The notes: generated from the letters alone by a model not told the origin. 63,981 nt of DNA, filler included, from a bacterium (GCA_037439705.1; 5 parts of 5 records of this genome joined end to end with filler, not necessarily neighbours in it); one strand, 5' to 3'. Shown: positions 14,818-34,645, numbered from the whole stretch's first letter. Translations and numbers: made by a program.

Positions 14818-15981
14818 ATGAAGAAGGGAAGAGTTTATCCAGGATTTGTCTATGAGGTAAAAAAGTATGGAAGATTTGATTTCACAGGTTGTTACAACTG
14901 CGGAACCTGTCCTCAAGTATGCGCTCTCTCTTCAGATAGTGCCCCTTTTCCAAGAAGACCAATTCAGTTTGCGCTCCTCGGATTGAGGGATGAGATGTTA
15001 AAGAGCCTTGAACCGTGGCTATGTCATGATTGTGGGGATTGTTCAAAGTGGTGTCCAAGGGAGAATGAGCCACAGCATTCAATGGCAACCCTTAGAAGGT
15101 TTCTCCTTGCTCAATATGACTGGACAGGAATTGCAAAGTGGATAATGAGGTCAAAGGTTTTACATTTCAGTCTATTATTTTTGACAGCAATTCTATTTCT
15201 CCTTCTCGTATGGGTTTATCATACCTTCATTGACCCGGATGTTAGAGGAACCATATCAACAAAGGAATTTTTATCTACCCCTATGGATTTATCCCATATG
15301 TTTTCAAGCCCATATCCTATTATGCTATATTTTACCCTCTTTGTTATCCTTTTCCCGATTTTTATTTTAGGAGTAAATCTGTTCAGGATGTGGAGGTGGA
15401 CGATGGCAGATTTGAGGATTCCATTTTCAATATATCTAAGGGAATTCATAACTTATATAAGGCACTCTGTAACCCATGAGAATATAAGAAAGTGTGAGGA
15501 AACAAAAGAGAGGTGGCTCCCACACTGGCTTATGGCTTTGGGATGTGTGATGATGCTTTTTATTCTGGTATTTGCATTAAAATGGTTTCAGACAGATAAG
15601 GTTCATCCTGTTTATCATCCCCAGAGATGGCTTGGATATATTGCAACAATTTTTATGCTCTATGGCTCAGGTGATGCGCTTTTGAGCAGGATAAGAAAAA
15701 AATCGGTTGTTCATAAGTATTCTGAATTCAGCGATATCACATTTCCGCTTCTTCTCTTCCTTGTTGCTTTGAGTGGAATTGTCCTTCACATATTTAGAAT
15801 TTTAGGGCTTTCACTTGCAACCCATTATGCTTACGCAGTTCACATAGCAATAACCATTCCAATGCTTCTTGTTGAACTTCCATTTGGAAAGTGGTCTCAC
15901 ATGATTTACAGACCAATGGCAATCTATTTTCAGAAAGTTAAAGAAAGTGTGATGGAAAAACAGATTAGGGAGGTAGCATGA
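14818..15981 (+). CDS. QmoC-like quinone-interacting membrane subunit (2x[4Fe-4S] plus cytochrome b-type TM domain)
   Basis: CYNCGTCPQVC and CHDCGDCSKWCP, followed by about six TM helices with candidate heme His residues (WLPHW, VLHIF, VHIAI, KWSHMIYRP). Confidence 0.8.
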   Translation: MKKGRVYPGFVYEVKKYGRFDFTGCYNCGTCPQVCALSSDSAPFPRRPIQFALLGLRDEMLKSLEPWLCHDCGDCSKWCPRENEPQHSMATLRRFLLAQYDWTGIAKWIMRSKVLHFSLLFLTAILFLLLVWVYHTFIDPDVRGTISTKEFLSTPMDLSHMFSSPYPIMLYFTLFVILFPIFILGVNLFRMWRWTMADLRIPFSIYLREFITYIRHSVTHENIRKCEETKERWLPHWLMALGCVMMLFILVFALKWFQTDKVHPVYHPQRWLGYIATIFMLYGSGDALLSRIRKKSVVHKYSEFSDITFPLLLFLVALSGIVLHIFRILGLSLATHYAYAVHIAITIPMLLVELPFGKWSHMIYRPMAIYFQKVKESVMEKQIREVA

Positions 15982-16853
15982 GCAAAACAAAAATAGGAGC
16001 AGCAATGGTAGTGGGAGGAGGGGTTGGAGGAATTCAGGCAGCCCTTGACCTCGCTGAGGCTGGAATAAAGGTCTATCTTGTAGAAGATAAACCATCCATA
16101 GGTGGTGTAATGTCACAACTGGATAAGACATTTCCGACGAATGACTGCGCTATGTGCACATTGGCACCGAGGCTTGTCGGTGTTGGAAGGCATAAGGACA
16201 TAGAGATAATCTCCCTTTCGGAGATAGAAAAAATTGAGGGAGAGCCCGGAAATTTCAGGGTAACTTTGAAGAGAAAGCCGAGATATGTTGATGAGGAGAA
16301 ATGCACTGGTTGTGGAACATGCGTTTCAAACTGTCCTACAAGAAACAGGGTTCAACCGCTTGAGCCCTCACCCATTGAGATTGAGCATGAGTTTAGAGAT
16401 AAGGTTGTGGAAATCGTTCAGAGGAATAAAGGAAGGGATGGACCGCTTATGCCAATTCTTCAGGAGATAAATGCTACATTCAACTACCTTCCTGAAAGTG
16501 CATTAAGATATGTAGCCAAAGAAACTGGTTATCCTCTTTCTCATATTTTAAGAATTGCCACATTCTACAGTGCATTCAGCATTACGCCGAGGGGAAAATA
16601 TGTAATAAATGTGTGCATAGGCACAACATGTTATGTGAGAGGTGCTGATAAACTTATGGAGAGATTTAGGGATGAGTTGAAAATAAAAGAAGGGGAAACA
16701 ACACCTGACAGGCTCTTCACATTGAGAGGAGTAAGGTGCATAGGTTGCTGTGGACTTGCCCCTGCTCTTATGGTGAATGAAGAGGTTCACGGAAAGGTCA
16801 CAATTCCTCATGTAAGAGAGATTATAAACAAATATAAAAAGGAGGCGGCATAA
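15978..16853 (+). CDS. Fusion of an HdrA N-terminal fragment with a NuoE/HydC-type [2Fe-2S] domain
   Basis: aa 1-120: GGGVGG, DKTFPTNDCAMC, RYVDEEKCTGCGTCVSNCP. Remainder: ATFYSAF, CIGTTC, CIGCCGLAP. Confidence 0.88.
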   Translation: MSKTKIGAAMVVGGGVGGIQAALDLAEAGIKVYLVEDKPSIGGVMSQLDKTFPTNDCAMCTLAPRLVGVGRHKDIEIISLSEIEKIEGEPGNFRVTLKRKPRYVDEEKCTGCGTCVSNCPTRNRVQPLEPSPIEIEHEFRDKVVEIVQRNKGRDGPLMPILQEINATFNYLPESALRYVAKETGYPLSHILRIATFYSAFSITPRGKYVINVCIGTTCYVRGADKLMERFRDELKIKEGETTPDRLFTLRGVRCIGCCGLAPALMVNEEVHGKVTIPHVREIINKYKKEAA

Positions 16854-17236
16854 TGCCGAAGCTCACAATTGATGAATTGAGAAGGAAAAGGGAGGATGCT
16901 AAGAAGGGGTTATATTTAAGGGAGGGAGAATTCAAGGGAAAGGTGATAGTTCATATGGGAACCTGCGGAATAGCTGCTGGAGCGAGAAATATCCTATCAG
17001 CATTCCTTGAGGAATTGGAAAAGAGTGGAAGAAAGGACATAATGATAACAACAAGTGGATGTGCAGGGTTGTGTTCAAGGGAGCCTATGGCTACAGTGGA
17101 AATCCTTGACAAACCGCCTGTCAAGTATGTTGACCTCACTCCTGACAAAGTCAGAAAAATTTTCAGGGAGCACCTTTTGGAAGGCAAAATAGTTGTTGAA
17201 TACGCCCTTGGAATAGGTTCTGAAAGGGGAGGATAG
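16853..17236 (+). CDS. Thioredoxin-fold ferredoxin subunit (HydD/HndB-like)
   Basis: VHMGTCGIAAGA...SGCAGLCSREP. Confidence 0.85.
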   Translation: MPKLTIDELRRKREDAKKGLYLREGEFKGKVIVHMGTCGIAAGARNILSAFLEELEKSGRKDIMITTSGCAGLCSREPMATVEILDKPPVKYVDLTPDKVRKIFREHLLEGKIVVEYALGIGSERGG

Positions 17237-17238
17237 AT

Positions 17239-19116
17239 ATGGCTGTAAGAAGGATAGAACTTATGTTATGCACAGGAACAGGCTGTGTCGCAGGTGGGGC
17301 ATACAAGATAAAGGATGCCCTTGAGAAGGAACTGAAAAAGCACGGGCTTGATAAGGAAATATCAATTGTTATTACAGGATGTAATGGCTTCTGCGGACAG
17401 GGTCCGCTTATGGTTGTTGAGCCCGATAAAATTTTTTATGGTTGGTTGAAGCCCGAAGACATACCACATCTCGTTGAGGAGCATTTTCTAAAGGGAAGAC
17501 CTGTTAAAAAACTGATGTTCGTTCCACCTGAAAAGAAGGAACCCGTTCCATTAGTTTCAGATATTTCATTCTTTAAGAAACAGTACCTTATTGTCTTAAA
17601 GAACAAGGGAATGATAGACCCAGAGAAGATAGAGGAATACATTGCAAGGGATGGATATGCAGCCCTTGAGAAGGTTTTGACATATATGGACCCCGAATCT
17701 GTCATTGAGGAAATAAAGAAATCTGGATTAAGGGGAAGGGGAGGTGCAGGATTTCCAACTGGAATCAAATGGGAAGTGTGCAGGAAACAACCAAAAACCC
17801 CCAAGTTCATAGTAGGCAACTGCGACGAGGGAGACCCAGGTGCTTATATGGACAGAAGCGTTTTTGAATCAGACCCCCATTCTGTTATTGAGGGAATGAT
17901 AATTGGAGGATATGCAATAGGTGCAAATAAGGGATATATATATGTGAGGACTGAATACCCACTGGCAATTCAGAGGATGAAGCTCGCAATTCAACAGGCA
18001 AGGGATTATGGGCTCCTTGGAGAAAACATTCTCGGTTCAGGATTCAGTTTCGACCTTGAGATAAGAGAGGGTTCTGGCGCATTCGTCTGCGGTGAAGAGA
18101 CATCACTTATTCATTCCATAGAAGGAAAATCTCCTGAACCACGACAGAGACCACCTTTTCCTGCACAGGAAGGAGTATGGGGATGTCCAACGGTTATAAA
18201 CAATGTTGAGACATGGGCTAATGTTCCAGTAATCATTCTCAGGGGTGCAGAATGGTTTTCAAGCATAGGAACGAAAACGAGCAAGGGGACGAAGATATTC
18301 TCTCTCGTCGGAAAGATAAACAATACAGGTCTCATTGAGGTTCCAATGGGGATAACCCTTAGAGAGATAATTTATGAGATAGGAGGAGGGATTCCGAAGA
18401 ATAAGAAGTTCAAGGCAGTTCAAACAGGTGGTCCATCAGGTGGATGCATACCAGCATCACTTATAGACCTTCCAATTGACTATGAGAGCTTAACAGAAGC
18501 GGGCTCAATGATGGGTTCAGGAGGAATGATTGTGATGGATGAGGAAACCTGTATGGTTGATGTGGCGAAGTTCTTCATACAGTTTACAAACGATGAATCC
18601 TGTGGAAAGTGCTCTACCTGCAGGGAAGGAAGCGAGGCCATGCTTGAGGTTCTAACCAGGATTACAGAAGGAGAAGGAAGGGAAGGGGATATTGAGTTCC
18701 TTGAGGAACTCGGTCAGGTTGTAAAAGATGCCTCAATGTGTGGACTCGGTAAGACCCTTCCAAACCCTGTTCTTTCTACAATAAGGTATTTCAGGGATGA
18801 GTATGAGGCTCACATTAAGTATAAAAGATGCCCTGCACTGGTCTGCAAGAATCTGATCAAATATTACATCCTTCCAGAAAAGTGTATAGGATGTACTGTT
18901 TGTATGAAGGAATGCCCTGTAAATGCTATAAAGGGACAGACGAAATACATTCATATTATAGACCAGTTGCTGTGCACAAAATGTGGAACCTGCATAGAAG
19001 TTTGTCCTCCAAAGGTATCAGCAATCATTAAGGTCACAGGAAAGGAAGCAGAAGAATTACAAACCATTCCGGAACCCATTCCAGTAGTAGAATTTAAAAA
19101 GAGGAGTAAAAAATGA
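17239..19116 (+). CDS. Long NuoF/HydB/HndC-type FMN- and NAD(P)H-binding subunit
   Basis: N-terminal CTGTGC..GCNGFC domain, GRGGAGFP, DEGDPGAYMD, GGPSGG, ESCGKCSTCREG and C-terminal 2x[4Fe-4S]. Confidence 0.92.
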   Translation: MAVRRIELMLCTGTGCVAGGAYKIKDALEKELKKHGLDKEISIVITGCNGFCGQGPLMVVEPDKIFYGWLKPEDIPHLVEEHFLKGRPVKKLMFVPPEKKEPVPLVSDISFFKKQYLIVLKNKGMIDPEKIEEYIARDGYAALEKVLTYMDPESVIEEIKKSGLRGRGGAGFPTGIKWEVCRKQPKTPKFIVGNCDEGDPGAYMDRSVFESDPHSVIEGMIIGGYAIGANKGYIYVRTEYPLAIQRMKLAIQQARDYGLLGENILGSGFSFDLEIREGSGAFVCGEETSLIHSIEGKSPEPRQRPPFPAQEGVWGCPTVINNVETWANVPVIILRGAEWFSSIGTKTSKGTKIFSLVGKINNTGLIEVPMGITLREIIYEIGGGIPKNKKFKAVQTGGPSGGCIPASLIDLPIDYESLTEAGSMMGSGGMIVMDEETCMVDVAKFFIQFTNDESCGKCSTCREGSEAMLEVLTRITEGEGREGDIEFLEELGQVVKDASMCGLGKTLPNPVLSTIRYFRDEYEAHIKYKRCPALVCKNLIKYYILPEKCIGCTVCMKECPVNAIKGQTKYIHIIDQLLCTKCGTCIEVCPPKVSAIIKVTGKEAEELQTIPEPIPVVEFKKRSKK

Positions 19117-22100
19117 AAAGCGTTGAGGTAATTATAAATGAAAAGAAGGTTGAGGAGGGGACAAAGCTCATAAATGCAATTGAAAAGGCTGGATTCTCTG
19201 TTCCTATTCTTTGCTATCACAAAGTCCTCTCTCCTTACGGTGCGTGCAGGTTGTGCCTTGTTGAAGTAAAGACCCCCGGAAGGGCTCCTGCCCTTCAGGC
19301 TTCATGCTCCTATCCCGTTCATGAGGGGATTGAGGTTTTGACAGATACAGAGAGGGTTAAAAAGGCAAGAATAATGGTTGCAGAGCTTCTCCTTGCAAGG
19401 TGTCCTGATTCAGACCTCATAAAAACCATTGCATATGCACACGGTGTTAAGGAGCCGAGGATAAGGAAAAAGAACGATGACTGCATCTATTGTGGCCTGT
19501 GCGTGAGAATGTGTGAAGAGAGGATGGGAAGAAGCGCAATAGGATTTACTGGAAGGGGTCCAAGAAAGAAGCTTGAGCCCCCATTTGGAAAGCACAATGA
19601 GATGTGCTGGACCTGCGGTGCTTGCAATTTTATATGTCCTGTTGGAAAGAAGGTTACAGTTCTAACTACAAAAAGACCATTCATTCCAATTCCAAATACC
19701 TTCAATATGGGTCTTGACTCAAGACCATCCATTTTCATCCTTTATCCACAGGCAGTTCCAAATAAGGCAATGATAGACAAAAATACATGTATCCATCTTA
19801 ATTATGAAGCCTGTGGAATATGTAAAGAGGTGTGCCCTGCTGGTGCAATAAATTATGAGGATAAGGAAAAGAAAATAGAATTAAATGTTGGAGCAATAAT
19901 TGTTGCTCCAGGATATGAACCATTTGATGCAAAATTGAAAGAGGAATATGGATACGGAAAATATCCAAATGTGGTTTCTGCGCTTGAGTTTGAGAGAATC
20001 CTTTCAGCATCAGGTCCATATTCTGGAAATGTTTTAAGACCCTCTGATAAGAAGCATCCAAAAAGAATCGCATTCATCCAGTGCGTTGGGTCAAGGGATA
20101 ATGAGAGGGATTATTGCTCAGCAGTTTGCTGTATGTATGCAACGAAGGAGGCGGTGTATGTGAGGGCATACAGCAAGTTATTTGAAGCGTATTATGAAAC
20201 AGCAAAAAAACAGGGGGTTAGATACATAAGGTGTAGACCAGCAAAAATTGAGGAGGTCCCTGAAACCAGGAACTTGATAGTCCATTACCTTGAAGAAGGG
20301 GATAAAAAGGCTTCTCATGAATATGATATGGTTGTTCTTTCTGTTGGAATGCTTCCTCCAAAGAGTGCGAAAGAACTGGCAAAAAGACTTGGAATTGAAC
20401 TTAACGAGTTCAACTTCTGCAGAACCTCTGTCTTTTCTCCAGTAGAAACTGTAAGAGAAGGGATATATGTGGCAGGACCATTCACTGAACCAAAGGATAT
20501 TCCTGAAACCGTGATGCAGGCATCCGCATCCGCATCAAGGGTTCTCTCACTTCTTTCCGATGTAAAGGGAAGCCTTATAAAGGTAAAAGAATATCCACCT
20601 GAGATTGATGTAACTGGTCAGGAACCAAGAATAGGGGTATTTGTCTGCCACTGCGGAACAAACATAGCGGGTGTTGTAAATGTGCCTCAGGTTGTTGAGT
20701 ATGCAAAGACATTACCGAATGTCATATGGGCTGAAAACTTCCTTTATACCTGCTCAGCAGATGCATGCGAAAAGATAAAGGAAAGGATAAAGGAGTACAA
20801 TCTTAACAGGGTTATTGTAGCATCCTGCACGCCGAGAACCCACGAGGTATTGTTTAGAAGCGTAATAAGGGAAGCAGGGTTAAATGAGTATCTCTTTGAG
20901 ATGGCAAACATAAGAGACCAGTGTTCATGGGTGCACATGGAGGAGAAGGAAAAATCCACAAAGAAAGCAAAGGACCTTGTGAGAATGGCAGTTGCAAAGG
21001 CAGTGCTCCTTGAACCCCTTCAGAAAGGGAAACTTCCAATAACAAAGGGGGCACTTGTTATAGGAGGTGGACTTGCTGGAATGACATCTGCATTAGAACT
21101 TGCTGAACAGGGATACAATGTCTACCTCGTTGAAAAGGAGAAGGAACTTGGAGGGAATCTGAGAAATATAAGGTATCTTTTCAATGGAGAAGACCCGCAG
21201 AGGGAACTAAGAGGAATAATTGATAAGGTTAAAGGAAATCAAAAAATCCATCTCTTCCTTGAATCAAAGGTTGAAAGCGTTGAGGGTTCTGTTGGAAACT
21301 TTAAAACAAGTATAAAAACGAAGGATGGAATAAAAGAGGTTGAGCACGGGGTTGTTATAATAGCAGTTGGAGCGAAGGAATATAAACCAAAGGAGTACCT
21401 CTACGGAGAAGACAGAAGGGTTATCACTCAGAGGGAGCTTGAGGAGAAGATTTCAAGTGAGGGAATCTCCTCTCCAAAGACATTTGTTATGATTCAGTGT
21501 GTAGGTTCAAGGGATGAAGAAAGACCTTATTGCTCAAGGATATGCTGTAATGAGGCAGTGAAGAATGCCTTGAAGATAAAGGAAATTTCCCCTGAATCAA
21601 ATGTCTACCTTCTTTACAGGGACATAAGGACATACGGTTTTAAGGAAAGTTATTACACTAAGGCGAGAAAAGAGGGCGTTGTTTTCATAAGATACAGGGA
21701 GGACAGAAAGCCTCAGGTTTCAAAAGATGGAGATAAACTTATAGTTAGCGTTTATGATTCCATCCTTGGAATGGAGGTTGAAATCCCAACAGATTTTCTT
21801 GTTCTTTCAGCAGGGGTTGTTCCTTATGAAGACAACAAAGAGGTTGCGCAGCTCTTTAAGGTTCCACTCACTCAGGACAAATTCTTCCTTGAGGCGCACA
21901 TAAAATTGAGACCCGTTGATTTTGCAACAGAGGGGGTGTTTCTCGCAGGGCTTGCCCATTCCCCAAAACTTATTGAGGAAAGTGTGATTCAGGCTCAGGC
22001 ATCAGCAGCAAGGGCGAGCACAATCCTTTCCCATGACCACCTTGAACTTGAGGCAAACATTTCTCACATAATTGATGAAAACTGTGATGGATGTGCATAC

Positions 22101-22313
22101 TGTGTTGACCCATGTCCATTTAAAGCAATCACACTTCTTGAATATATGTGGCAGGGCTCAATAAAGAAGGTTGTCGAGGTTAACGAAAGCCTATGCAAGG
22201 GTTGTGGATGCTGTATGGCTACCTGTCCAAAGAGGGGAGCAATGGTTAAAGGTTTCACCCTTGACCAGATAAGCGCACAGATTAATGCAGCTCTTGAATC
22301 AATGGAGGTGTGA
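19113..22313 (+). CDS. Fusion of a NuoG/HydA N-terminal Fe-S domain with the remainder of a double-module HdrA
   Basis: aa 1-180: CYH..GACRLC..ASC plus 2x[4Fe-4S]. Then PQAVP, EFER, QCVGSRD..CSAVCC, VFVCHCG, ASCTPR, NIRDQC, a second GGGLAG/QCVGSRD..CSRICC module and a C-terminal ferredoxin. Confidence 0.88.
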   Translation: MKSVEVIINEKKVEEGTKLINAIEKAGFSVPILCYHKVLSPYGACRLCLVEVKTPGRAPALQASCSYPVHEGIEVLTDTERVKKARIMVAELLLARCPDSDLIKTIAYAHGVKEPRIRKKNDDCIYCGLCVRMCEERMGRSAIGFTGRGPRKKLEPPFGKHNEMCWTCGACNFICPVGKKVTVLTTKRPFIPIPNTFNMGLDSRPSIFILYPQAVPNKAMIDKNTCIHLNYEACGICKEVCPAGAINYEDKEKKIELNVGAIIVAPGYEPFDAKLKEEYGYGKYPNVVSALEFERILSASGPYSGNVLRPSDKKHPKRIAFIQCVGSRDNERDYCSAVCCMYATKEAVYVRAYSKLFEAYYETAKKQGVRYIRCRPAKIEEVPETRNLIVHYLEEGDKKASHEYDMVVLSVGMLPPKSAKELAKRLGIELNEFNFCRTSVFSPVETVREGIYVAGPFTEPKDIPETVMQASASASRVLSLLSDVKGSLIKVKEYPPEIDVTGQEPRIGVFVCHCGTNIAGVVNVPQVVEYAKTLPNVIWAENFLYTCSADACEKIKERIKEYNLNRVIVASCTPRTHEVLFRSVIREAGLNEYLFEMANIRDQCSWVHMEEKEKSTKKAKDLVRMAVAKAVLLEPLQKGKLPITKGALVIGGGLAGMTSALELAEQGYNVYLVEKEKELGGNLRNIRYLFNGEDPQRELRGIIDKVKGNQKIHLFLESKVESVEGSVGNFKTSIKTKDGIKEVEHGVVIIAVGAKEYKPKEYLYGEDRRVITQRELEEKISSEGISSPKTFVMIQCVGSRDEERPYCSRICCNEAVKNALKIKEISPESNVYLLYRDIRTYGFKESYYTKARKEGVVFIRYREDRKPQVSKDGDKLIVSVYDSILGMEVEIPTDFLVLSAGVVPYEDNKEVAQLFKVPLTQDKFFLEAHIKLRPVDFATEGVFLAGLAHSPKLIEESVIQAQASAARASTILSHDHLELEANISHIIDENCDGCAYCVDPCPFKAITLLEYMWQGSIKKVVEVNESLCKGCGCCMATCPKRGAMVKGFTLDQISAQINAALESMEV

Positions 22314-22314
22314 A

Positions 22315-22740
22315 ATGGGAGAACAGGAAAAAAAGTTTGAGCCTTTTATCATCGCCTTCTGCTGTAACTGGTGCTCCTATGCAGGAGCGGATTTAGCAGG
22401 AGTATCAAGGCTTCAGTACCCGCCAAATGTTAGAATTATAAGGGTTATGTGTTCTGGTATGGTTCATCCAAATCTCGTCATAGATGCTTTGACAAAGGGC
22501 GCGGATGGCGTCATAATGTGTGGCTGTCATCCAGGTGATTGTCATTATCGGGAAGGAAATCTCAAGGCTCAGAAAAGGGCAGAGGGAATCCACCTTATGC
22601 TTGATGACCTCGGAATTGAAAGGGAAAGGTTCAGGCTTGAATGGGTTTCTGCCTCTGAGGGAATTAAATTCGCCCAGGTAATTAGTGAGTTTACTGAACA
22701 GATAAGAAAACTCGGACCAAATCCTATGAAAGGAGGGTAG
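22315..22740 (+). CDS. mvhD: MvhD [2Fe-2S] subunit
   Basis: FCCNWCSY..AD.AG, RVMCSG, GCHPGDCHY, WVSASE. Start set at MGEQ. Confidence 0.94.
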   Translation: MGEQEKKFEPFIIAFCCNWCSYAGADLAGVSRLQYPPNVRIIRVMCSGMVHPNLVIDALTKGADGVIMCGCHPGDCHYREGNLKAQKRAEGIHLMLDDLGIERERFRLEWVSASEGIKFAQVISEFTEQIRKLGPNPMKGG

Positions 22741-22742
22741 AG

Positions 22743-22943
22743 ATGAGGGTGAAAATAGTTGAGAGAAAAAAATTTATGTGGGATGGTAATGAATATAAGA
22801 CTGAAGAAGAGGCAAAGGATGCAATGCTCAAGTATAAATCTGATGGATTTGAGGTCCTAATGGAGAAAGGAGGTGATAAATACTACCTTTATACAAGAAG
22901 GGTTGCAGCGCAGGTGGTGGTTGAAGGAACTCCACCTGTTTAA
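22743..22943 (+). CDS. Small hypothetical protein (66 aa)
   Basis: Has its own SD (AGGAGG) and fills the mvhD-mvhG gap. Confidence 0.7.
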   Translation: MRVKIVERKKFMWDGNEYKTEEEAKDAMLKYKSDGFEVLMEKGGDKYYLYTRRVAAQVVVEGTPPV

Positions 22944-22961
22944 AAATAAAGGAGGTGAATC

Positions 22962-23885
22962 ATGGCTGTAAGAGTAGCAGAAGAGTGGTTCGCCATATGT
23001 GGGGGTTGTGAGGTCACAATCCTTGACATAGGCGAAAAGCTTCTTGACCTTCTGCCAAACCTTCAATTCGTCCATATCCCAGTTTTAATGGACCACAAGG
23101 TTTTCGGGCAGAAGGGAGAGAAGAAAAAGATGGAGATTCCACAGGCAGATGTTGGAATCATCGCGGGCTCAATAAGGAATGAGGAGAACAGGGAACTGGC
23201 GAAGGAGATGAGGGCAAAGTGCAAAACCCTTATTGCTCTTGGCTCCTGTGCCTGCTACGGAGGAATTCCCGCACTCGCAAACCTCTTCAAGTTAGATGAC
23301 CTATTGAAAAAGGTTTACAAGGAATCAAAGTCAACAGACCCAGCAGAGCCTCCCAAAGATAATATTCCATCTCTCGCCGACAGGGTGTATGCACTTGATG
23401 AGATTGTGAAGGTGGATGTCTATATCCCTGGATGCCCAACATCCCCAGACCTCGTAGTTGATGCCCTGACAGCCCTTCTTCAGGGAAAGCCATTTACCCT
23501 TCCAGAAAGGAGCGTATGCGATGACTGCCCAACACAGAGACAGAAGAAGGCGGACATCCAGCTGAAGAGACCCCTTGAGTCTGTGACAGACATAAGTAAG
23601 CCAGTGAATAAATCAAGGTGTTTTATGGAACTCGGTTATCTTTGCTTAGGACCAGTGACAAAATCAGGATGTGGAGGTCATGAAAAGGTTCCAAGATGCA
23701 TAAAGGGCTACATGCCATGCAGGGGCTGTTTCGGTCCAATCAGAAAGGGCGCAAATCCACTCGTTGAGATGATGGGAGCACTCTCAAGCATAGGGCTTGA
23801 TGCAAAGGTAATTGCTGACAGGGCACCCACAATTCAGAGGTACATAGGCGGGCACGGAAGGCTGAAACCAACGCCTGCAAGATAA
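22962..23885 (+). CDS. mvhG: Group 3c [NiFe]-hydrogenase small subunit
   Basis: CGGCE, GSCA, PGCP, VCDDC, CLGPVT..GC, CRGC. Strong SD AAAGGAGGTGA. Confidence 0.9.
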   Translation: MAVRVAEEWFAICGGCEVTILDIGEKLLDLLPNLQFVHIPVLMDHKVFGQKGEKKKMEIPQADVGIIAGSIRNEENRELAKEMRAKCKTLIALGSCACYGGIPALANLFKLDDLLKKVYKESKSTDPAEPPKDNIPSLADRVYALDEIVKVDVYIPGCPTSPDLVVDALTALLQGKPFTLPERSVCDDCPTQRQKKADIQLKRPLESVTDISKPVNKSRCFMELGYLCLGPVTKSGCGGHEKVPRCIKGYMPCRGCFGPIRKGANPLVEMMGALSSIGLDAKVIADRAPTIQRYIGGHGRLKPTPAR

Positions 23886-23900
23886 AAAGGAGGTGAAAAA

Positions 23901-25346
23901 ATGGGAGAAAGAATAGTAATACAACCAGTATCAAGGATTGAAGGGCATGCAAAGATAACAATTCAACTTGATGATGTAGGAAATGTGGAGAACACATGGG
24001 TGAATGTGATTGAACTAAGGGGATTTGAGAAGTTCTGTATAGGAAGACCTGTTGAGGAACTTCCGAGGATTATGACAAGCATATGCGGAGTCTGCCCATG
24101 GTCCCTCCACCTTGCCAGTGCAAAAGCAAATGATGCTGTATTCGGCGTTAAAATCCCACCCGCAGCAAAGAAACTGAGAGAACTATGCAATTCAATCGCC
24201 TATACAGAGGAACACATCCTTCACTTCTATTTCCTCGCAGGAGCGGACTTTGTAATGGGTCCGGATGCAGATTATTCAGTCAGGAATGTAATTGGAATAG
24301 CCCAGAAGCTTCCAGATGTTGCTAAGAGGGTTGTGAGGTGCAGGTGGCTCGGAGCAGAGATGCTTCAAATAGTTTCTGGAAAATCAATCCATCCTGTTAC
24401 AGCGGTTCCTGGTGGGTTCAGCAAGCCTTTGACAAAAGAAGAGGTTGAAAAATTAAAACCTATGGCTCAGGAGGTTCTTGACCTTGCAAAGTTTACAATT
24501 GATTATGCAAAGAAGAACATCTTTCCACAGTATCTTGATGCAGTAAAGACGCTCGGCGTAATAAAGACAGGCTTTCTCGGAACTGTAAGAGAGGATGGAA
24601 CATGGGATGTTTATGATGGAAAACTGAGGATGATGAACCCTGACGGAACCTACCTTGACTTCAAATATGAGGAATACACCGATTACATAGCAGAGCACAT
24701 TGAACCATGGTCATATCTGAAATTCCCCTATATGAAGAAGGCTGGAAAAATTGTTATGGACATTGACAATCCCGTTGGGGTTTACAGAACCAATACCCTT
24801 GCGAGGATAAATGTTTGTGATAAGATGCCAACCCCACTTGCTCAGGCTGAGCTTGAGGAGTTCAGGAAGAACTTCGGAAGACCAGCACAATTGACCCTCC
24901 TTTATCATTGGGCAAGGCTGATTGAACTTCTTGCAAATGCAGAATATGTGGTTCAACTTCTTAATGACCCTGAAATAACGAGCACAGATATAAGGGTTCC
25001 TGTTAAACCCAGAGCTGCAAGGGGAGTTGGATGCGTTGAGGCACCAAGGGGAACACTCATTCACGATTATGAGACAGACGAAAATGGAATTGTTACAAAT
25101 GTCAACCTCATAGTTGGAACAACACATAACAATGCTGCAATCAATATGTCCGTTAAGAAATCTGCGAAGGAGCTCATAAAGAATGGTAAGTATGATGAGG
25201 GAATACTAAACAAACTTGAAATGGCAATAAGGGCTTATGACCCATGCCTTTCCTGCGCCACCCACAAGCTTGATGGTTCTATACCAGTTAAAGTAACAGT
25301 CATAGGACCTGATTACCAGATCATAGATACCCTTAAGAACTTCTGA
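23901..25346 (+). CDS. mvhA: Group 3c [NiFe]-hydrogenase large subunit
   Basis: RIEGH, RGFE, ICGVC (L1), EAPRG, DPCLSCATH (L2) followed by a cleavable tail. Confidence 0.93.
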   Translation: MGERIVIQPVSRIEGHAKITIQLDDVGNVENTWVNVIELRGFEKFCIGRPVEELPRIMTSICGVCPWSLHLASAKANDAVFGVKIPPAAKKLRELCNSIAYTEEHILHFYFLAGADFVMGPDADYSVRNVIGIAQKLPDVAKRVVRCRWLGAEMLQIVSGKSIHPVTAVPGGFSKPLTKEEVEKLKPMAQEVLDLAKFTIDYAKKNIFPQYLDAVKTLGVIKTGFLGTVREDGTWDVYDGKLRMMNPDGTYLDFKYEEYTDYIAEHIEPWSYLKFPYMKKAGKIVMDIDNPVGVYRTNTLARINVCDKMPTPLAQAELEEFRKNFGRPAQLTLLYHWARLIELLANAEYVVQLLNDPEITSTDIRVPVKPRAARGVGCVEAPRGTLIHDYETDENGIVTNVNLIVGTTHNNAAINMSVKKSAKELIKNGKYDEGILNKLEMAIRAYDPCLSCATHKLDGSIPVKVTVIGPDYQIIDTLKNF

Positions 25347-25350
25347 TTTT

Positions 25351-25377
25351 AGGGGGGTTAACCCCCCTTTTCTTTTT
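25351..25377 (+). terminator. Intrinsic terminator after mvhA
   Basis: AGGGGGG-TTAA-CCCCCCT hairpin followed by TTTCTTTTT. Confidence 0.8.
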
Positions 25378-25851
25378 ATGAAGCCAAAAAGGATAATCGT
25401 TTTAGGGTGTGGGAATGTGTTGTTTGGAGATGATGGATTTGGTCCAGAGGTTGTAAAATTTCTTAACGAAAATTTTAAAATTCCTGATGATGTTGAGGCT
25501 ATTGATGCTGGAACGAGTGTTAGAAACATACTTTTTGACCTGGTTTTAAATCCGTCAAGGCCCGAGAAGGTTATTATAGTGGACGCAGTTGACATTGGAA
25601 GAACTCCGGGTGAGGTTTTTGAAATTGACATTTCATCAATTCCACCTATAAAAATTGATGACTTTTCAATGCACCAATTGCCAACATCAAGTCTCTTAAG
25701 GGAATTGAAGGATATATGCGGCGTTGATGTGAGAATAATATGCGTTCAGGTTCAGCATATTCCAGAAGAGGTGAAGCCTGGACTTTCAGATGTAGTAAAA
25801 AAGGCAATTCCCGTTGCCTGCGAAAGGATTTTAAAAGAAATTATTGATTAA
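25378..25851 (+). CDS. Hydrogenase maturation protease
   Basis: GCGNVLFGDDGFG, IDAGT, VDAV, SMH. Confidence 0.93.
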   Translation: MKPKRIIVLGCGNVLFGDDGFGPEVVKFLNENFKIPDDVEAIDAGTSVRNILFDLVLNPSRPEKVIIVDAVDIGRTPGEVFEIDISSIPPIKIDDFSMHQLPTSSLLRELKDICGVDVRIICVQVQHIPEEVKPGLSDVVKKAIPVACERILKEIID

Positions 25852-25895: not shown

Positions 25896-26921
25896 ATGAA
25901 GCCTAATATATGCGTGATAGGGGCTGGATACTGGGGAAAAAACATTGTTAGGACTATTTACGAAATGGAATGCCTCTACGGAGTTTGCGAGATAGATATT
26001 AAAAAGATTGAAAAATTAAAAAATGAATATGAGTTCAAAGCATTTACCAACTTGAAGGATGCACTCAGAGACGAGAATATAGAAGGATATGCCATTGCTG
26101 TTCCTCCCTCTTCCCTTCCAAAAGTTGCTCTTGAGGTTTTGAAAAGAGAAAGGCATGCCTTTGTTGAAAAACCGCTTTCCCTTTCCTTAAAGGGAATAGA
26201 AAGGATGATGGAACTTTCAGAGAAACACGGAGTAGTTCTCATGGGGGGCTACATTCTTCTTTATAACGATGCCCTGTCGTTCATAAAAAACTGGTTCAAA
26301 TCCGAAAAACCCAGAACCTACTACATCTATTCCCAGAGACTTAACCTCGGAATAATAAGAAATGATGTGAATGTCTGGTGGAGTCTTGCTCCTCACGATG
26401 TTTCAATAATGAATTATCTGTTTGATGAAAAACCAGATTTCATCAGGGCATGGGGTTCTTCCTTCATAAGAAATGGTATAGAGGATGTTGTTCTGGGAGA
26501 GATTTCCTATTCGGACGGGATGAGGGTATACATTCATGTAAGCTGGATTGATCCGTGCAAGGTGAGAAGAACGGTATTCATTACGGACAAAGGAATGATA
26601 GAATTTGATGATACAAGGGCTGATGATAAGGTAAGGATTCATAAAAAAACCGTTGAAAAAAAGGAGGTTGAAAAGGGGCTTGGAGATTTTTCCTCTTTTG
26701 CTGAATTTCAGGTGATTCTCCGTTCAGGAGATACATTTATTCCAGCAATAAGGGTCAGGGAACCTTTGAAGGTTGAATTAGAGCATTTTGTTGATTGCAT
26801 AATCAAAAAGAAAAAGCCGCTCACAGATGGTTTATTTTCGTATCAGGTTTTAAAAGTCATCTCCGCCGGGGAAAGGGCTTTAAAATCCGAAAAAGGGGTG
26901 AGGATAAATTGGGAGAGATAA
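25896..26921 (+). CDS. Gfo/Idh/MocA-family oxidoreductase (sugar-nucleotide dehydrogenase-like)
   Basis: GAGYWG, VEKP, RLNLG, LAPHD. Confidence 0.88.
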   Translation: MKPNICVIGAGYWGKNIVRTIYEMECLYGVCEIDIKKIEKLKNEYEFKAFTNLKDALRDENIEGYAIAVPPSSLPKVALEVLKRERHAFVEKPLSLSLKGIERMMELSEKHGVVLMGGYILLYNDALSFIKNWFKSEKPRTYYIYSQRLNLGIIRNDVNVWWSLAPHDVSIMNYLFDEKPDFIRAWGSSFIRNGIEDVVLGEISYSDGMRVYIHVSWIDPCKVRRTVFITDKGMIEFDDTRADDKVRIHKKTVEKKEVEKGLGDFSSFAEFQVILRSGDTFIPAIRVREPLKVELEHFVDCIIKKKKPLTDGLFSYQVLKVISAGERALKSEKGVRINWER

Positions 26922-27547
26922 AGATATATCCAGGAGTAAAACTCGGGAAAGACTTAAGAATTGAAGAATGGGTTGAGATAGGGGTTCCTCCGAGGGATAA
27001 AGGTAATGAAATTCTTGAAACGGTTATAGGAGATAATGCATTTATAAGGTCAAAGAGCATTATATACGCGGGAACAAGGATTGGAAAAAATTTCTTCGCC
27101 GGGCATACAGTCATGATAAGGGAGAGGTGTATAATTGGAGATGATGTAAGTATTGGAACAGGGAGCGTTATTGAAAGGGATGTAAAGATAGGGAATGGCG
27201 TGAGAATTCATTCACAGGTTTTTATACCTGAATTTACGGAGATTGAAGATAGAGCATGGATTGGTCCAAGGGTTGTTATAACCAACTGCCTCCATCCATT
27301 GTGTCCTCAGAGCAAAAGATGCCTCAAAGGACCGTTAATAAAANNNNNNNNNNNNNNNNNNNNNNNNNNNNNNNNGGTTCTCCTTCCCGACATAATAATC
27401 GGCGAGAGGGCTTTTGTAGGAGCGGGTTCCGTTGTAACCTGTGATGTTCCTGAAGGAAAGGTTGTGGCAGGAAATCCAGCGAGAATAATAAAAGATATTT
27501 CAGAGCTTAAATGCCCATACAATTTTATTGATAAACCTTACAGGTAA
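26909..27547 (+). CDS. Hexapeptide-repeat N-acetyltransferase
   Basis: Left-handed beta-helix repeats, GAGSVVT, GNPAR. TTG start inferred; contains an N gap. Confidence 0.85.
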   Translation: MGEIKIYPGVKLGKDLRIEEWVEIGVPPRDKGNEILETVIGDNAFIRSKSIIYAGTRIGKNFFAGHTVMIRERCIIGDDVSIGTGSVIERDVKIGNGVRIHSQVFIPEFTEIEDRAWIGPRVVITNCLHPLCPQSKRCLKGPLIKXXXXXXXXXXXVLLPDIIIGERAFVGAGSVVTCDVPEGKVVAGNPARIIKDISELKCPYNFIDKPYR

Positions 27548-27677: not shown

Positions 27678-28427
27678 ATGAACTTTCTATATAATTTTCT
27701 TTTTTTGGGAGTTGCGGTTGTGTATTCAATGGCAGGGCTTGGAGGCGGAAGTATATATGTTGGACTTTTTTCTGCGTCAGATATGGAACACAGATTTATC
27801 CCTTCAACCAGTCTTTTTTTAAACATGGTTGTGACCTCTGCTGGATTTTTCAATTACAGAAAACACATAAATTTCAAAGAAAAAAATTTTTTAATACCTC
27901 TATATTTCCTCTCAATTGCAGGAGTTTACCTGGGAACAAAGGTGAATTTGAATTTAAAAAGAAAGGAATTTTTATTAATCCTTGGCATTCTGCTCATTCT
28001 TTCTGCAGTCATTTCTTTTTTCAAAAATAGGTTGAAGGTATACACAGGATTTAAGAAATCTTCTACAAAAAATAATGTTATTCTGTTTTGTAGTTTCATC
28101 TTTGGATTTTTTGCCGGACTTGTTGGAATAGCGGGCGGAGTATTTCTTTCGCCCCTTCTTTTAATTGCAGGATTTCATCCAAAAGAGATTGCTGGAATTA
28201 CTTCTCTTTATGTTTTTCTCAATTCCACATTGGGTTTTATGTTCCATTATTTTGAAAATAATGTGGATTTTTCAGTTATTTTTCCTTGTGTTTTTTTTGT
28301 TTTTACAGGCGGAATCATCGGTTCTTATCTTGGGTCTTTCAGATTTAATCCCGCTTTTGTGAATAAATTTCTTATATTTATAATATTTACAATAGGAACA
28401 AGAATAATATTGAAAGCAACCCGATAA
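27678..28427 (+). CDS. TauE/SafE-family (sulfite exporter-like) membrane protein
   Basis: Duplicated GLGGG / GIAGG..SP half-repeats, about eight TM segments. Confidence 0.82.
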   Translation: MNFLYNFLFLGVAVVYSMAGLGGGSIYVGLFSASDMEHRFIPSTSLFLNMVVTSAGFFNYRKHINFKEKNFLIPLYFLSIAGVYLGTKVNLNLKRKEFLLILGILLILSAVISFFKNRLKVYTGFKKSSTKNNVILFCSFIFGFFAGLVGIAGGVFLSPLLLIAGFHPKEIAGITSLYVFLNSTLGFMFHYFENNVDFSVIFPCVFFVFTGGIIGSYLGSFRFNPAFVNKFLIFIIFTIGTRIILKATR

Positions 28428-32362: not shown

Positions 32363-33535
32363 CTATACACCCCTTTTTCTCCTGTAAAATTTTACCAGAA
32401 CCTCGGCTATTTCCCTTCTTGTAAATTCTGGAGGAAGAAGTTTTCCCTTTGAAAGGATTTCTCTGGTTTTTGTGCCACTTATTGAGACCCTGAATTTTTC
32501 TCCGTGAGGACATGTCTTCTCTGTTGCCATTGAACCGCACTTCTTGCAGAAAAATGAATTCTCAAAAAACAATGGATTAATTCCAAGCTCGCTTTCATCA
32601 AATTCCTCAAATATCTTCTGGGCATCATAGGGGCCATAAAAATTACCAACCCCAGCATGGTCTCTTCCGACTATGAAATGGGTGCATCCATAGTTCTTTC
32701 TCACGATTGCGTGAAGGATTGCTTCCCTCGGTCCGCCATATCTCATGGCAGATGGATTGACGCATAGCATAACCCTTTCAGCTGGGAAATAGTTCTTGAG
32801 CAAAACCTCATAGCATTTCATCCTCACATCTGCAGGAATGTCTTCCTCCTTGGTCTTTCCTATTATGGGATGTATAAAGAGACCGTCACATATTTCAAGA
32901 GCACATTTTTGAATGTATTCGTGAGCCCTGTGAATTGGATTTCTGGTCTGAAAACCCACGACATTTTTCCATTTTCTCCTTTTGAATTCATTCCTTGTTT
33001 CTTCGGGATAAAGATAATACTTCTTGAATTTTTTTCTTTCGGGTTTCAAAAAGTATATATTTCCTCCAACGAGATATTCAGGGCATTCCTTTATGTATTT
33101 CACAGCGGGATGGGAGGTATCTGTTGTTTTAAAAACCTTTATACACTCTTCTTCTTTTTTTCTTTTGAATATATCCCGAATTTCAATAATTCCTACAGGT
33201 TTTTTCTGGAAGACAAGAAGCGCTTGTTCAGTTCTTTTGAAAACAGAGGGCTCTTCTACTGGGAGCACAACAGGCATACTCCATACTGTTCCATCGGTCA
33301 GTCTCATGGAATTGATAACAGAGATATAATTTCTTTCATCCATGAATCCTTCAAGAGGACTGAAACCACCGCATGCTATCATCTCCGCATCACAGATGGT
33401 CCACTCGTCCACTTGAATTTCTGAAACATTTGGTTTTCCAAGTAATTCTTCAACCTTTTCTCTTTCACAGAATCTGTTTTTAAGAACGCCCCCATGAGGT
33501 AAAATCAAAGCCGGAGAGGATTCGCTCTTTTCCAT
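32363..33535 (-). CDS. sat: Sulfate adenylyltransferase
   Basis: PHGG, GFSPLEGFM, FQTRNPIHRAHE, GRDHAG. Confidence 0.96.
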   Translation of the reverse strand: MEKSESSPALILPHGGVLKNRFCEREKVEELLGKPNVSEIQVDEWTICDAEMIACGGFSPLEGFMDERNYISVINSMRLTDGTVWSMPVVLPVEEPSVFKRTEQALLVFQKKPVGIIEIRDIFKRKKEEECIKVFKTTDTSHPAVKYIKECPEYLVGGNIYFLKPERKKFKKYYLYPEETRNEFKRRKWKNVVGFQTRNPIHRAHEYIQKCALEICDGLFIHPIIGKTKEEDIPADVRMKCYEVLLKNYFPAERVMLCVNPSAMRYGGPREAILHAIVRKNYGCTHFIVGRDHAGVGNFYGPYDAQKIFEEFDESELGINPLFFENSFFCKKCGSMATEKTCPHGEKFRVSISGTKTREILSKGKLLPPEFTRREIAEVLVKFYRRKRGV

Positions 33536-33544
33536 TTTTTCCTC

Positions 33545-34348: not shown

Positions 34349-34626
34349 AGTTTTCCTCCTGCTATGGCCGGGATTATTGATACCACATCACCATCTTTTA
34401 AGGAGGTATCCTCTCCGTTTAGAAACCTTATATCCTCATCGTTTACGAAGATGTTTACAAACCTCCTTAAATTGCCTTTCTCATCATATATTCTCTCTTT
34501 TATACCCGGATACTTTTTGTTGAGATTCTCAAACAATTCCCTCACATTACTTCCCTCACACTCCACCTCATCCTGATTTTTTGTAAGTCCCTGCAGTGGT
34601 AATGGAATTCTTACCTTTACCTTCAT
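34339..34626 (-). CDS. MoaD/CysO-type ubiquitin-like sulfur carrier with a capped C-terminus
   Basis: LRRFVNIFVNDEDIR...IIPAIAGG followed by KLWN. Confidence 0.9.
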   Translation of the reverse strand: MKVKVRIPLPLQGLTKNQDEVECEGSNVRELFENLNKKYPGIKERIYDEKGNLRRFVNIFVNDEDIRFLNGEDTSLKDGDVVSIIPAIAGGKLWN

Positions 34627-34645
34627 CTTATCACCTCCTTATTTT

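Follow-up and report, generated by a model that had tools for sequence, protein, structure and literature searches.

HdrA encoded in two pieces around a nested HydBC-type module in a bacterial Mvh-HdrA-QmoC operon

Flavin-based electron bifurcation gives many anaerobes a route to low-potential electrons at minimal energy cost. A stretch of bacterial DNA (GCA_037439705.1; 63,981 nucleotides including filler, five records of one genome joined end to end, here called the window) carries on its plus strand an operon, 14818-25851, in which the flavoprotein HdrA is split between two genes inside its inserted ferredoxin domain, with parts of a Hyd/Nuo-type enzyme nested between the halves. This architecture, its conservation among relatives and the complementarity of the two HdrA pieces were established in silico. 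The operon probably encodes one multi-subunit electron-bifurcating Mvh-HdrA-QmoC complex with a HydBC/Bfu module wired to its low-potential arm, a reading held with moderate confidence. Its genes are tightly packed, with stops and starts overlapping or abutting and a GGAGG-type ribosome-binding site for each, in the order QmoC-like, HdrA(N)-HydC, HydD-like, HydB-type NuoF, HydA(N)-HdrA pair, MvhD, a 66-residue open reading frame (ORF), MvhG, MvhA and HycI-type protease. The split HdrA and the parts nested in it are as follows.

15978..16343, plus strand: HdrA unit 1, N-terminal piece, amino acids 1-122 of ORF 15978-16853 (5ODC, 8RVV, HdrA2 profile)
16380..16853, plus strand: NuoE/HydC (BfuC-type) thioredoxin-like [2Fe-2S] domain, amino acids 135-291 of ORF 15978-16853 (PF01257, 8A6T_C, 7T2R_C)
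16853..17236, plus strand: HydD-like small thioredoxin-like 2Fe-2S ferredoxin, 127 amino acids (weak PF01257; NF041612)
17239..19116, plus strand: HydB/BfuB-type NuoF, 625 amino acids (Pfam domains; 7T2R_B, 7Q4V_B, 8A6T_B, 9N5U_B)
19113..19667, plus strand: NuoG/HydA N-domain (BfuA-type), amino acids 1-185 of ORF 19113-22313 (PF13510, Fer4_21, Fer4_Nqo3; 9MQX_A, 8A6T_A)
19668..20600, plus strand: HdrA unit 1, C-terminal piece, amino acids 186-496 of ORF 19113-22313 (5ODC 249-510; HdrA2 profile 240-562)
20619..22313, plus strand: HdrA unit 2, amino acids 503-1066 of ORF 19113-22313 (5ODC 2-237 and 397-646; Pfam)

The 291-residue product of ORF 15978-16853 has two parts, the start of an HdrA flavin adenine dinucleotide (FAD) domain of about 120 residues and a NuoE/HydC domain. 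Residues 8-122 match the HdrA structures 5ODC (145-258, E 1.5e-39) and 8RVV (142-255, E 2.1e-45), and this piece covers positions 141-256 of the NCBIfam HdrA2 profile. It holds the FAD Rossmann strand with its GxGxxG motif (residues 8-47; PF12831, PF07992), the sequence FPTNDCAMC (Cys57 and Cys60, the latter at the position of HdrA Cys197) and the first ferredoxin motif, C109-x2-C112-x2-C115-x3-C119-P (nucleotides 16302-16337). The break, junction 1, lies at about nucleotide 16340. A linker of about 15 residues leads to residues 141-288, which align to the HydC chain 8A6T_C (15-162, E 1.1e-44) and to PF01257 (E 2.5e-46) and have the features of BfuC, the NuoE-like [2Fe-2S] subunit of the Bfu family (HydABC, NiFe-HydABCSL, NfnABC). 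Known BfuC proteins are not described as fused to HdrA(N); the fusion is a feature of ORF 15978.

Two further genes lie between the halves. The HydD-like protein scores 21 bits with PF01257, below the cut-off, and 36.6 bits with the 2Fe-2S ferredoxin profile NF041612. The NuoF is of the HydB type and aligns over its full length to solved bifurcating enzymes of the HydB and NfnB types (7T2R, 7Q4V, 8A6T, 9N5U), with residues 1-590 matching NiFe-HydB 7T2R_B 1-590 (E 5.4e-259). Its domains are PF01257 at residues 5-81 (the N-terminal 2Fe-2S domain), PF01512, PF10589 and Fer4 at 542-592; it thus has the BfuB set of a flavin mononucleotide (FMN)/NADH domain, an N-terminal 2Fe-2S cluster, a 4Fe-4S cluster and a C-terminal 2x[4Fe-4S] domain. 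By these matches the nested module is predicted to be a complete HydBC/Bfu-type NADH and ferredoxin module, beyond a plain NADH module.

The 1066-residue product of ORF 19113-22313 opens with a NuoG/HydA N-domain (residues 10-180; PF13510, Fer4_21, Fer4_Nqo3; 9MQX_A 18-181, E 7.6e-36; 8A6T_A 12-206), whose predicted ligands are C34, C45, C48 and C65 for a [2Fe-2S] cluster and two 4Fe-4S motifs, motif A at 124-134 and motif B at 165-176. The Pfam scan gave no PF10588 match, the His-ligated cluster region, in this ORF, unlike the NuoG of the complex I encoded elsewhere in the window. At junction 2 (19640-19690) HdrA resumes: the protein aligns to 5ODC 249-510 from residue 168 and to HdrA2 profile positions 240-562. 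The C-terminal piece of unit 1 begins with the linker PIPNTFNMGL..PQAVP, followed by the second ferredoxin motif (motif C; C226/C234/C237/C241, nucleotides 19788-19835) and the rest of the thioredoxin reductase (TrxR) fold with C324/C335/C339/C340 and Lys345. HdrA2 profile scores are 162.8 bits for ORF 15978 and 802.2 bits for ORF 19113; neither reaches the cut-off of 1100. Unit 1 is split over two genes and is not one continuous chain.

Unit 1 has neither an N-terminal domain nor a C-terminal ferredoxin domain. Unit 2, in the same chain, has an N-terminal cluster domain (C512, C514, C547, C572), its own GxGxxG (648-653, in a FAD strand at 648-683) and a C-terminal 2x[4Fe-4S] domain (986-1040); it has no inserted ferredoxin domain, the 68 residues at 737-805 standing opposite the 160 of 5ODC 237-397. 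The Cys197 equivalent is present in unit 1, as Cys60 of ORF 15978, and unit 2 has variable non-cysteine residues there. ORF 19113 and the ORF 15978 piece together are predicted to give a fused asymmetric HdrA heterodimer. Both units hold a counterpart of 5ODC Lys409, the lysine next to the flavin. A role beside the flavin is stated for BamE Lys280 in a preprint on class II benzoyl-CoA reductase (BCRII; 10.64898/2026.04.10.717634), and fused or tandem HdrA heterodimers with the same complementarity of Cys197 and N-terminal domain are described by Chadwick et al. (PMC9012536).

A scan of species-representative genomes matched at least 600 stretches, at least 568 of them related, of which the best 80 loci, all from other genomes, were kept and classed by tblastn with window segments. 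HdrA(N) runs in frame into NuoE, as at junction 1, in 42 of the 80 (split loci). Another 25 have an in-frame insertion of 1.47-2.0 kb between the HdrA pieces (HdrL type), in 10 the pieces are contiguous (plain), and 3 end too early. Of the 42 split loci, 33 have junction 2, NuoG-N into HdrA-C, in frame; in 8 the fetched DNA holds no junction-2 sequence, most stopping within or just after NuoF, and one other (L068) makes up the rest. L028 and L038 have only 1.9 and 3.2 kb beyond NuoF, less than or about the 1.0-4.4 kb taken up elsewhere by extra genes. Such genes lie between hydB and the NuoG-HdrA gene in 16/34 split loci; at 13128-15877 of L008 they encode DRTGG, CBS-HATPase and PHP proteins, and many relatives have DRTGG, CBS + HATPase, PHP and HATPase genes there. 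The window has none of these accessory or regulatory genes; its hydB overlaps the NuoG-HdrA gene. The HydD-like protein has a homologue encoded by a separate gene in, for example, L001-L004 and L008; no such separate gene is listed for L005-L007.

Split loci span Acidobacteriota, Bacteroidota, Ignavibacteriota, Bacillota, Cloacimonadota, Spirochaetota, Planctomycetota, Thermodesulfobacteriota and one archaeon. The 120 best matches listed for ORF 15978 are all 276-310 residues long, combine the NuoE-type and 4Fe-4S families, and, the window's own record excepted, share 67-93% identity with it. Junction 1 is spanned in about 25 clusters at 50% identity, a count made by eye from matched ranges, and some of these contain proteins of 418-439 residues. 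In P0128 (436 residues), as in P0131, P0134, P0138 and P0145, an HdrA N-terminal cluster domain precedes the same HdrA-NuoE junction, which places that junction on a different HdrA backbone. The one sequencing run listed, with 0.10 of the sampled words, yields seven short contig pieces over 15900-22400 (16474-16684, 16769-16971, about 17734-18030, 18836-18986, 22366-22400), all of which stop short of 16340 and 19660. The split gene structure recurs far beyond chance and is no assembly artefact.

That the two pieces rebuild one HdrA is indicated by a natural uninterrupted homologue, the 1084-residue L042 protein of a Methanoperedens metagenome-assembled genome (MAG). Its residues 44-158 align to ORF 15978 residues 6-120 (73% identity) and its residues 147-1065 to ORF 19113 residues 165-1059 (57% identity); the two alignments are colinear and their overlap is confined to the Cys motif. 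Motif B of ORF 19113, with the CPVGK and 15-residue linker that follow it, resembles motif 1 and the linker of L042, and the recombination point probably lies inside a ferredoxin motif. The parts of unit 1 are shared out between the two chains: the only GxGxxG strand is on ORF 15978, and the remaining TrxR fold, its 4Fe-4S cysteines and Lys345 are on ORF 19113. The TrxR-domain cluster cysteines and flavin lysine of an HdrA are all present, and the inserted 2x[4Fe-4S] domain is present only in trans.

Conservation follows the same lines. Among ORF 15978 homologues, 31/31 keep G13, G15, G18, C57, C60, C109, C112, C115 and C119, together with the NuoE cysteines C213, C218, C254 and C258. Likewise, 30/30 ORF 19113 homologues keep motifs A, B and C, the 2Fe-2S cysteines, the TrxR-cluster cysteines of both units, Lys345 and Glu294; the TrxR-cluster cysteines of unit 2 are C796, C807, C811 and C812 (30/30), with K817 kept in 23/30 versus 30/30 for K345. 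Eight further ORF 15978 homologues with an in-frame TGA were left out of that alignment. The TGA falls exactly at Cys60 in 8/38 homologues, all from Desulfobacterota MAGs (L024, L025, L031, L033, L035, L036, L037, L039), which are probably selenocysteine forms of split HdrA. HdrA and HdrL selenoproteins are known (PMC2702500).

Structure prediction gave a similar picture. Residues 1-500 of ORF 19113 and 1-135 of ORF 15978 were co-folded with custom alignments of 30 and 31 rows, giving ipSAE values of 0.84, 0.85 and 0.84 in three runs versus 0.00 for the best of 3 controls. The mark used is reached by 58/80 solved complexes and 2/110 mismatched pairs, a calibration that is rough here as custom alignments were used. 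The runs share at least 95% of contacts, with a partner pLDDT of at least 85. In the model, residues 108-128 of ORF 15978 contact the linker and motif C of ORF 19113 (203-248) as well as its motifs B (163-174) and A (133-138). The Rossmann strands are paired, 9-12 of ORF 15978 with 259-263 of ORF 19113, and the 37-54 stretch is packed against 291-300 and 449-490. The interface includes all eight cysteines of both ferredoxin half-motifs. The model fits an inter-chain FAD domain and an inter-chain ferredoxin domain set against the BfuA-type clusters.

Motif B (C165-C175) was also considered as the true HdrA motif 1, in which case nothing would be split. It was set aside as the main reading because motifs A and B together match NuoG/HydA dicluster domains (Fer4_21, Fer4_Nqo3, 9MQX_A, 8A6T_A), the ORF 15978 motif is invariant, and the Rossmann strand occurs only on ORF 15978. 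The likeness of motif B to L042 motif 1 may instead mark the recombination point.

The initial annotation had placed these genes in the order HdrA(N)-HydC, HydD, HydB, HydA(N)-HdrA(C), and its coordinates, content and order agree with the domain and structure-sequence matches. It had also proposed that one FAD site and several Fe-S clusters of an HdrA are built from two polypeptides; the division of residues, L042 and the co-fold support this in silico. Three checks along the lines it had suggested came out in its favour: L042, used in place of artificially joined halves, matches both pieces colinearly, the two chains co-fold (ipSAE 0.84 versus 0.00 for the best control), and homologues carry junction 1 in 42/80 loci and junction 2 in 33/42.

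Several known systems share parts of this design. In HdrL1-3 of Desulfobacterium autotrophicum and HdrA9-11 of ANME-1, a pyridine-nucleotide module interrupts the inserted ferredoxin domain and MvhD follows (PMC2702500, PMC9012536); the window resembles HdrL and HdrA-NfnB fusions in both respects. The HdrL-type protein of L043 (1489 residues, 66% identical to ORF 19113 over 852 residues) carries Fer4_20 and Pyr_redox_2 at residues 162-550, i.e. an NfnB/GltD-like insertion. In HdrL, however, the module is a domain inside one chain, whereas the window has a polypeptide break with four nested coding regions; the HdrL module is a GltD/NfnB FAD domain, whereas the one here is HydC-(HydD)-HydB-HydA(N), with FMN, NADH and ferredoxin; and the break here comes directly after the first Cys motif, whereas the L043 insertion comes about 35 residues later, past PQAVP. 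The Pfam scan of window ORFs found no Fer4_20 or inserted Pyr_redox_2 between the motifs, which sets the locus outside HdrL proper. The window version may work like HdrL without being a member, and its description as a multi-subunit analogue of HdrL in the initial annotation is backed by the 25/80 sister loci on the same backbone, 17/25 of them with a QmoC neighbour.

BCRII (BamBCDEFGHI) similarly combines a fused HdrA dimer (BamE), an MvhD-like BamF and HydABC-like BamGHI (10.64898/2026.04.10.717634; PMC9304861). Its subunits are separate, unsplit genes, however. BamI delivers to the input arm, made up of the C-terminal ferredoxin domain and BamF, whereas in the window the module is joined to HdrA at the inserted ferredoxin domain. 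The tungsten enzyme BamBC and BamD serve as the BCRII outputs, in place of the Mvh hydrogenase and QmoC proposed here. The HydB- and HydC-type parts of the window align over their full length to solved members of the HydABC/NiFe-HydABCSL/NfnABC (Bfu) enzymes, and the BfuA-type N-domain, with a 2Fe-2S and two 4Fe-4S clusters and no His-ligated cluster, is like that of the 'clade 45' Type 2 Bfu enzymes (PMC9304861). Unlike known Bfu enzymes, BfuC and BfuA are each fused to an HdrA piece, and on the 'third substrate' side stands a bifurcating HdrA flavoprotein together with hydrogenase and quinone modules. The HdrA fold, cofactor ligands, MvhD/MvhG/MvhA partners and the Cys197/N-domain cluster logic are shared with methanogen MvhADG-HdrABC, which has an HdrA homodimer, HdrBC and free ferredoxin where the window has a fused asymmetric pair, a QmoC-like membrane protein and a tethered Bfu module. 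Two HdrA-like flavoprotein units with a QmoC membrane subunit recall QmoABC, but the genes are arranged differently, the qmoC score falls short of the cut-off, and hydrogenase and Bfu modules are present.

Fused HdrA pairs, HdrL, NfnB inserts in the inserted ferredoxin domain, Bam-Bfu and the co-location of nuoEFG, hdrA and mvhD are already in print, the nearest published mention being the 'nuoEFGmvhD; nuoGEFmvhDhdrA' units listed in Desulfotignum phosphitoxidans (PMC4046663). A literature search, with supplements beyond its reach, found no description of an HdrA split by nested nuoE/F/G-like genes, and priority is not assured. A split HdrA with a nested Hyd/Nuo cassette is absent from passages of PMC9304861, PMC9012536, PMC2702500, PMC5947623, PMC4046663 and PMC6305446, and likewise of PMC10327494, PMC11216029, PMC11237513, PMC5736913 and preprint 10.64898/2026.04.10.717634. 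An HdrA-fused Bfu type is not named in the 'hdr' passages and section 5 part 2 of PMC9304861. Set against the input-arm wiring of BCRII, the proposed attachment of Bfu at the inserted ferredoxin domain would be a new variant.

The split HdrA is flanked by the following partner genes.

14818..15981, plus strand: QmoC-like protein (NCBIfam NF038018 qmoC 199.9 bits; Pfam Fer4_8/Fer4_9 at amino acids 23-82)
22315..22740, plus strand: MvhD, [2Fe-2S] adaptor (PF02662, E 4.8e-57; NF045873 VhuD)
22743..22943, plus strand: conserved 66-residue ORF (own ribosome-binding site; tblastn)
22962..23885, plus strand: MvhG-type [NiFe]-hydrogenase small subunit (PF01058, E 9.2e-31)
23901..25346, plus strand: MvhA-type [NiFe]-hydrogenase large subunit (PF00374, E 4.4e-32)
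25378..25851, plus strand: HycI-type hydrogenase maturation protease (PF01750, E 1.6e-26)

The QmoC-like protein, whose stop overlaps the start of ORF 15978, has an N-terminal HdrC-like 2x[4Fe-4S] domain and a hydrophobic C-terminal part; its best NCBIfam match is the qmoC profile NF038018 (10-371 against 5-360 of 360). A QmoC homologue lies directly upstream in 12/42 split, 17/25 HdrL-type and 2/10 plain loci. No aprBA/AprAB was found among the window ORFs scanned, which cover part of the window. The window also encodes a canonical complex I operon (about 56957-61396, plus strand) with NuoD, a short 422-residue NuoF and a NuoG that keeps the His-cluster region, so a quinone pool is expected.

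The Mvh set beside HdrA is complete, with MvhD, both hydrogenase subunits and a maturation protease (PF02662, PF01058, PF00374, PF01750), and its gene content points to a putative Mvh (group 3c)-type hydrogenase. MvhD starts at 22285 in the ORF list; the ATG at 22315, just past the upstream stop, is the likely start. A G+C hairpin and T-run lie directly 3' of the MvhA gene (25347-25375). In the split loci, mvhD is 3' of the fused HdrA in 26/42 and MvhG or MvhA falls inside the fetched DNA in 15/42. A scan covered ten upstream proteins, taken from seven split loci that lack QmoC: HdrC-like and HdrB-like (CCG) genes occur in L013 and L023, a CCG protein in L021, FrhB/FdhB-like genes in L016 (8858-9971), a response-regulator kinase in L030 and a GCV_H-domain protein in L031 (8624-9946), and no family matched the upstream protein of L022. 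The lipoyl-carrier-like GCV_H neighbour and the FrhB/FdhB-like genes hint at further partner modules. The conserved core is ORF 15978, HydB and ORF 19113, usually with MvhD, and the high-potential port and hydrogenase vary.

The 66-residue ORF, too short for the 80-residue cut-off of the ORF list, has tblastn matches in 31/80 loci, always within these clusters (split, HdrL-type or plain), after mvhD or just upstream of qmoC. Across 19 sequences K10, W13, D14, Y31, F36, Y50 and R52 are invariant, and its model (pLDDT 85) has a strand-strand-helix-strand-strand fold. It matched no Pfam family, and a fold search against the PDB gave no match at E <= 0.001. The product may serve as an additional subunit or as a factor in assembly.

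Assembly, wiring, substrates and direction can be proposed by analogy with the methanogen complex as summarised in PMC9012536 and with HydABC/Bfu enzymes (PMC9304861). Since unit 1 is divided between two chains, it would fold only with both, its FAD domain and inserted 2x[4Fe-4S] domain being inter-chain, and the N-domain cluster, completed by Cys60, would probably be inter-chain too. The split would thereby clamp the HydC domain, the HydD-like protein, HydB and the HydA N-domain onto the inserted ferredoxin domain, the low-potential arm in methanogen HdrA. MvhD, MvhG and MvhA would give or accept H2 electrons at the usual input arm. With H2 as the donor, the FAD of unit 1 would bifurcate, a site favoured because its lysine is invariant and that of unit 2 is kept in 23/30; in BamE, only the first FAD is held to bifurcate (10.64898/2026.04.10.717634). 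The high-potential electron would leave the TrxR cluster, enter QmoC by way of its HdrC-like domain and so reach the quinone pool (menaquinone). The low-potential electron would pass from the N-domain cluster with Cys60 through the trans-assembled ferredoxin domain and the BfuA-type clusters to the HydBC core, which would then reduce NAD+ and ferredoxin. The whole complex may also run backwards.

Several points weigh against this reading. The QmoC-like protein scores 199.9 bits against a cut-off of 300. Mvh genes fall inside the fetched DNA in 15/42 and QmoC in 12/42 split loci, so H2 and quinone are not universal partners. HdrA has been solved as a single chain, and the co-fold pass may reflect likeness or memory, not binding; which ORF 19113 motif would pair with the ORF 15978 motif is judged from sequence and model. 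The low-potential-arm wiring is argued from homology to methanogen HdrA. In solved BCRII, the Bfu module feeds the input arm via the C-terminal ferredoxin domain and MvhD, and BamE shows that HdrA domains can be repurposed (10.64898/2026.04.10.717634). Furthermore, forward transfer from H2 to menaquinone and NAD+/ferredoxin would waste much free energy.

The main rival reading gives the same architecture the opposite direction, in which Bfu would confurcate NADH and reduced ferredoxin into HdrA, electrons from menaquinol (via QmoC) or thiol (via HdrBC) would join them, and H2 would leave via MvhD/MvhAG. HydABC and BamGHI do act as confurcating inputs for NADH and reduced ferredoxin (PMC9304861; 10.64898/2026.04.10.717634). 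Many hosts are fermenter- or syntroph-like (Cloacimonadota, Syntrophaceae, Syntrophobacterales, Spirochaetota, Sedimentisphaerales), and nothing in the sequence fixes the direction. Group 3c Mvh hydrogenases, on the other hand, are usually regarded as H2-oxidising. By our own estimate, confurcation with menaquinol (~-74 mV) to give H2 would require the second electron to be near -470 mV even with H2 at ~1 Pa, lower than the ~-400 mV attributed to NADH plus ferredoxin confurcation (PMC9304861). The reverse direction is judged rather unlikely; if true, it would provide a soluble or peripheral route by which fermenters and syntrophs dispose of quinol or thiol electrons as H2.

Less probable still is that the nested module is merely an NADH dehydrogenase (diaphorase) attached to HdrA, like the NfnB insert of HdrL, with no second bifurcation and no ferredoxin. 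HdrL-type and split loci share backbone and neighbours and interchange on the tree, which suggests equivalent roles. However, the NuoF is not the short respiratory type, which the window encodes separately in its complex I operon (422 residues); over residues 1-590 it retains both the N-terminal 2Fe-2S domain and the C-terminal 2x[4Fe-4S] domain found in bifurcating HydB, and NfnB itself holds a bifurcating FAD (PMC9012536). The initial annotation had spoken of an NADH module locked onto HdrA: the tie between nested module and split HdrA stands, and the module type is revised to NADH plus ferredoxin (HydBC/Bfu). As for a frameshifted, mis-assembled or dead hdrA interrupted by an inserted hyd operon, only the unusual gene structure speaks for it, and conservation refutes it. 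The same junctions recur in 42 (junction 1) and 33 (junction 2) independent loci of many phyla, ligand and cofactor residues are invariant in both pieces, probable selenocysteine codons stand at the key Cys, the genes are translationally coupled, and identity over full lengths is 46-82%. Artefact or decay is given almost no weight.

Elsewhere in the window, a sulfur assimilation-like set occupies 32363-38102 on the minus strand: an ATP sulfurylase at 32363-33535, a fusion of ThiS and PALP at 34646-35797, and, at 35781-38102, a sulfite/nitrite reductase that ends in a fused TusA domain. On the plus strand, 27678-28427 encodes a TauE/SafE exporter. Between 8213 and 56795 there are 419 masked or unresolved N, with one run inside ORF 26795-27547 that translates as a run of X.

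The history of the split was followed on a tree of 58 backbone sequences (ORF 19113 residues 250-1066 and their counterparts; 30 split, the window among them, 18 HdrL-type and 10 plain), after 20 truncated or frameshifted loci were left out. The three states are interleaved; 14 changes are needed, and starred branches force at least 10 for the split state. Forcing the split rows together, groups that were defined before the tree was made, costs 1346 log-likelihood units (approximately unbiased test, p 3.3e-54). The tree of nested HydB (30 split rows) conflicts with the backbone tree and rejects 2/3 of the backbone clades examined (L004+L005, p 2e-69; L014+L016+L018, p 0.001; not L011/L012/L013/L023, p 0.33), a test weakened because the groups were picked after the trees were seen. 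These patterns are read as swapping of the middle cassette between homologous HdrA flanks, or as gene conversion of those flanks. Many independent inventions are judged less likely, since all the split loci share the same junctions. The HdrL insertion of L043, about 35 residues past the split and beyond the PQAVP linker, is read as a distinct event elsewhere in that domain.

Taken together, these patterns allow a more tentative proposal, that the inserted ferredoxin domain of HdrA is an evolutionary socket in which low-potential partners (none or free ferredoxin, NfnB-type, HydBC/Bfu) have been repeatedly swapped by recombination, the split form obligately putting two mechanistically different bifurcation devices in series via the low-potential arm. 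If so, one complex would couple H2, quinone (or disulfide), NAD+ and ferredoxin, and in reverse quinol or thiol electrons would leave as H2 without a membrane potential. Before BCRII, no complex with two bifurcation modules had been reported, according to preprint 10.64898/2026.04.10.717634 (2026), and the split-HdrA family would be a second two-module design, differently wired and taxonomically much wider than BCRII. With split, HdrL-type and plain forms interleaved on a single backbone tree, the family offers a case in which module swapping in redox enzyme evolution can be tested. The natural split site marks where the HdrA fold tolerates cutting and reassembly around another enzyme, which would be useful for structural work and engineering. 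Relatives of ORF 15978 are currently labelled 'NADH:ubiquinone oxidoreductase subunit E' or 'NAD(P)H-dependent oxidoreductase subunit E', and metabolic reconstructions of peat, sediment and digester organisms that rely on such labels probably miss a site at which H2, NADH, ferredoxin and quinone would be coupled.

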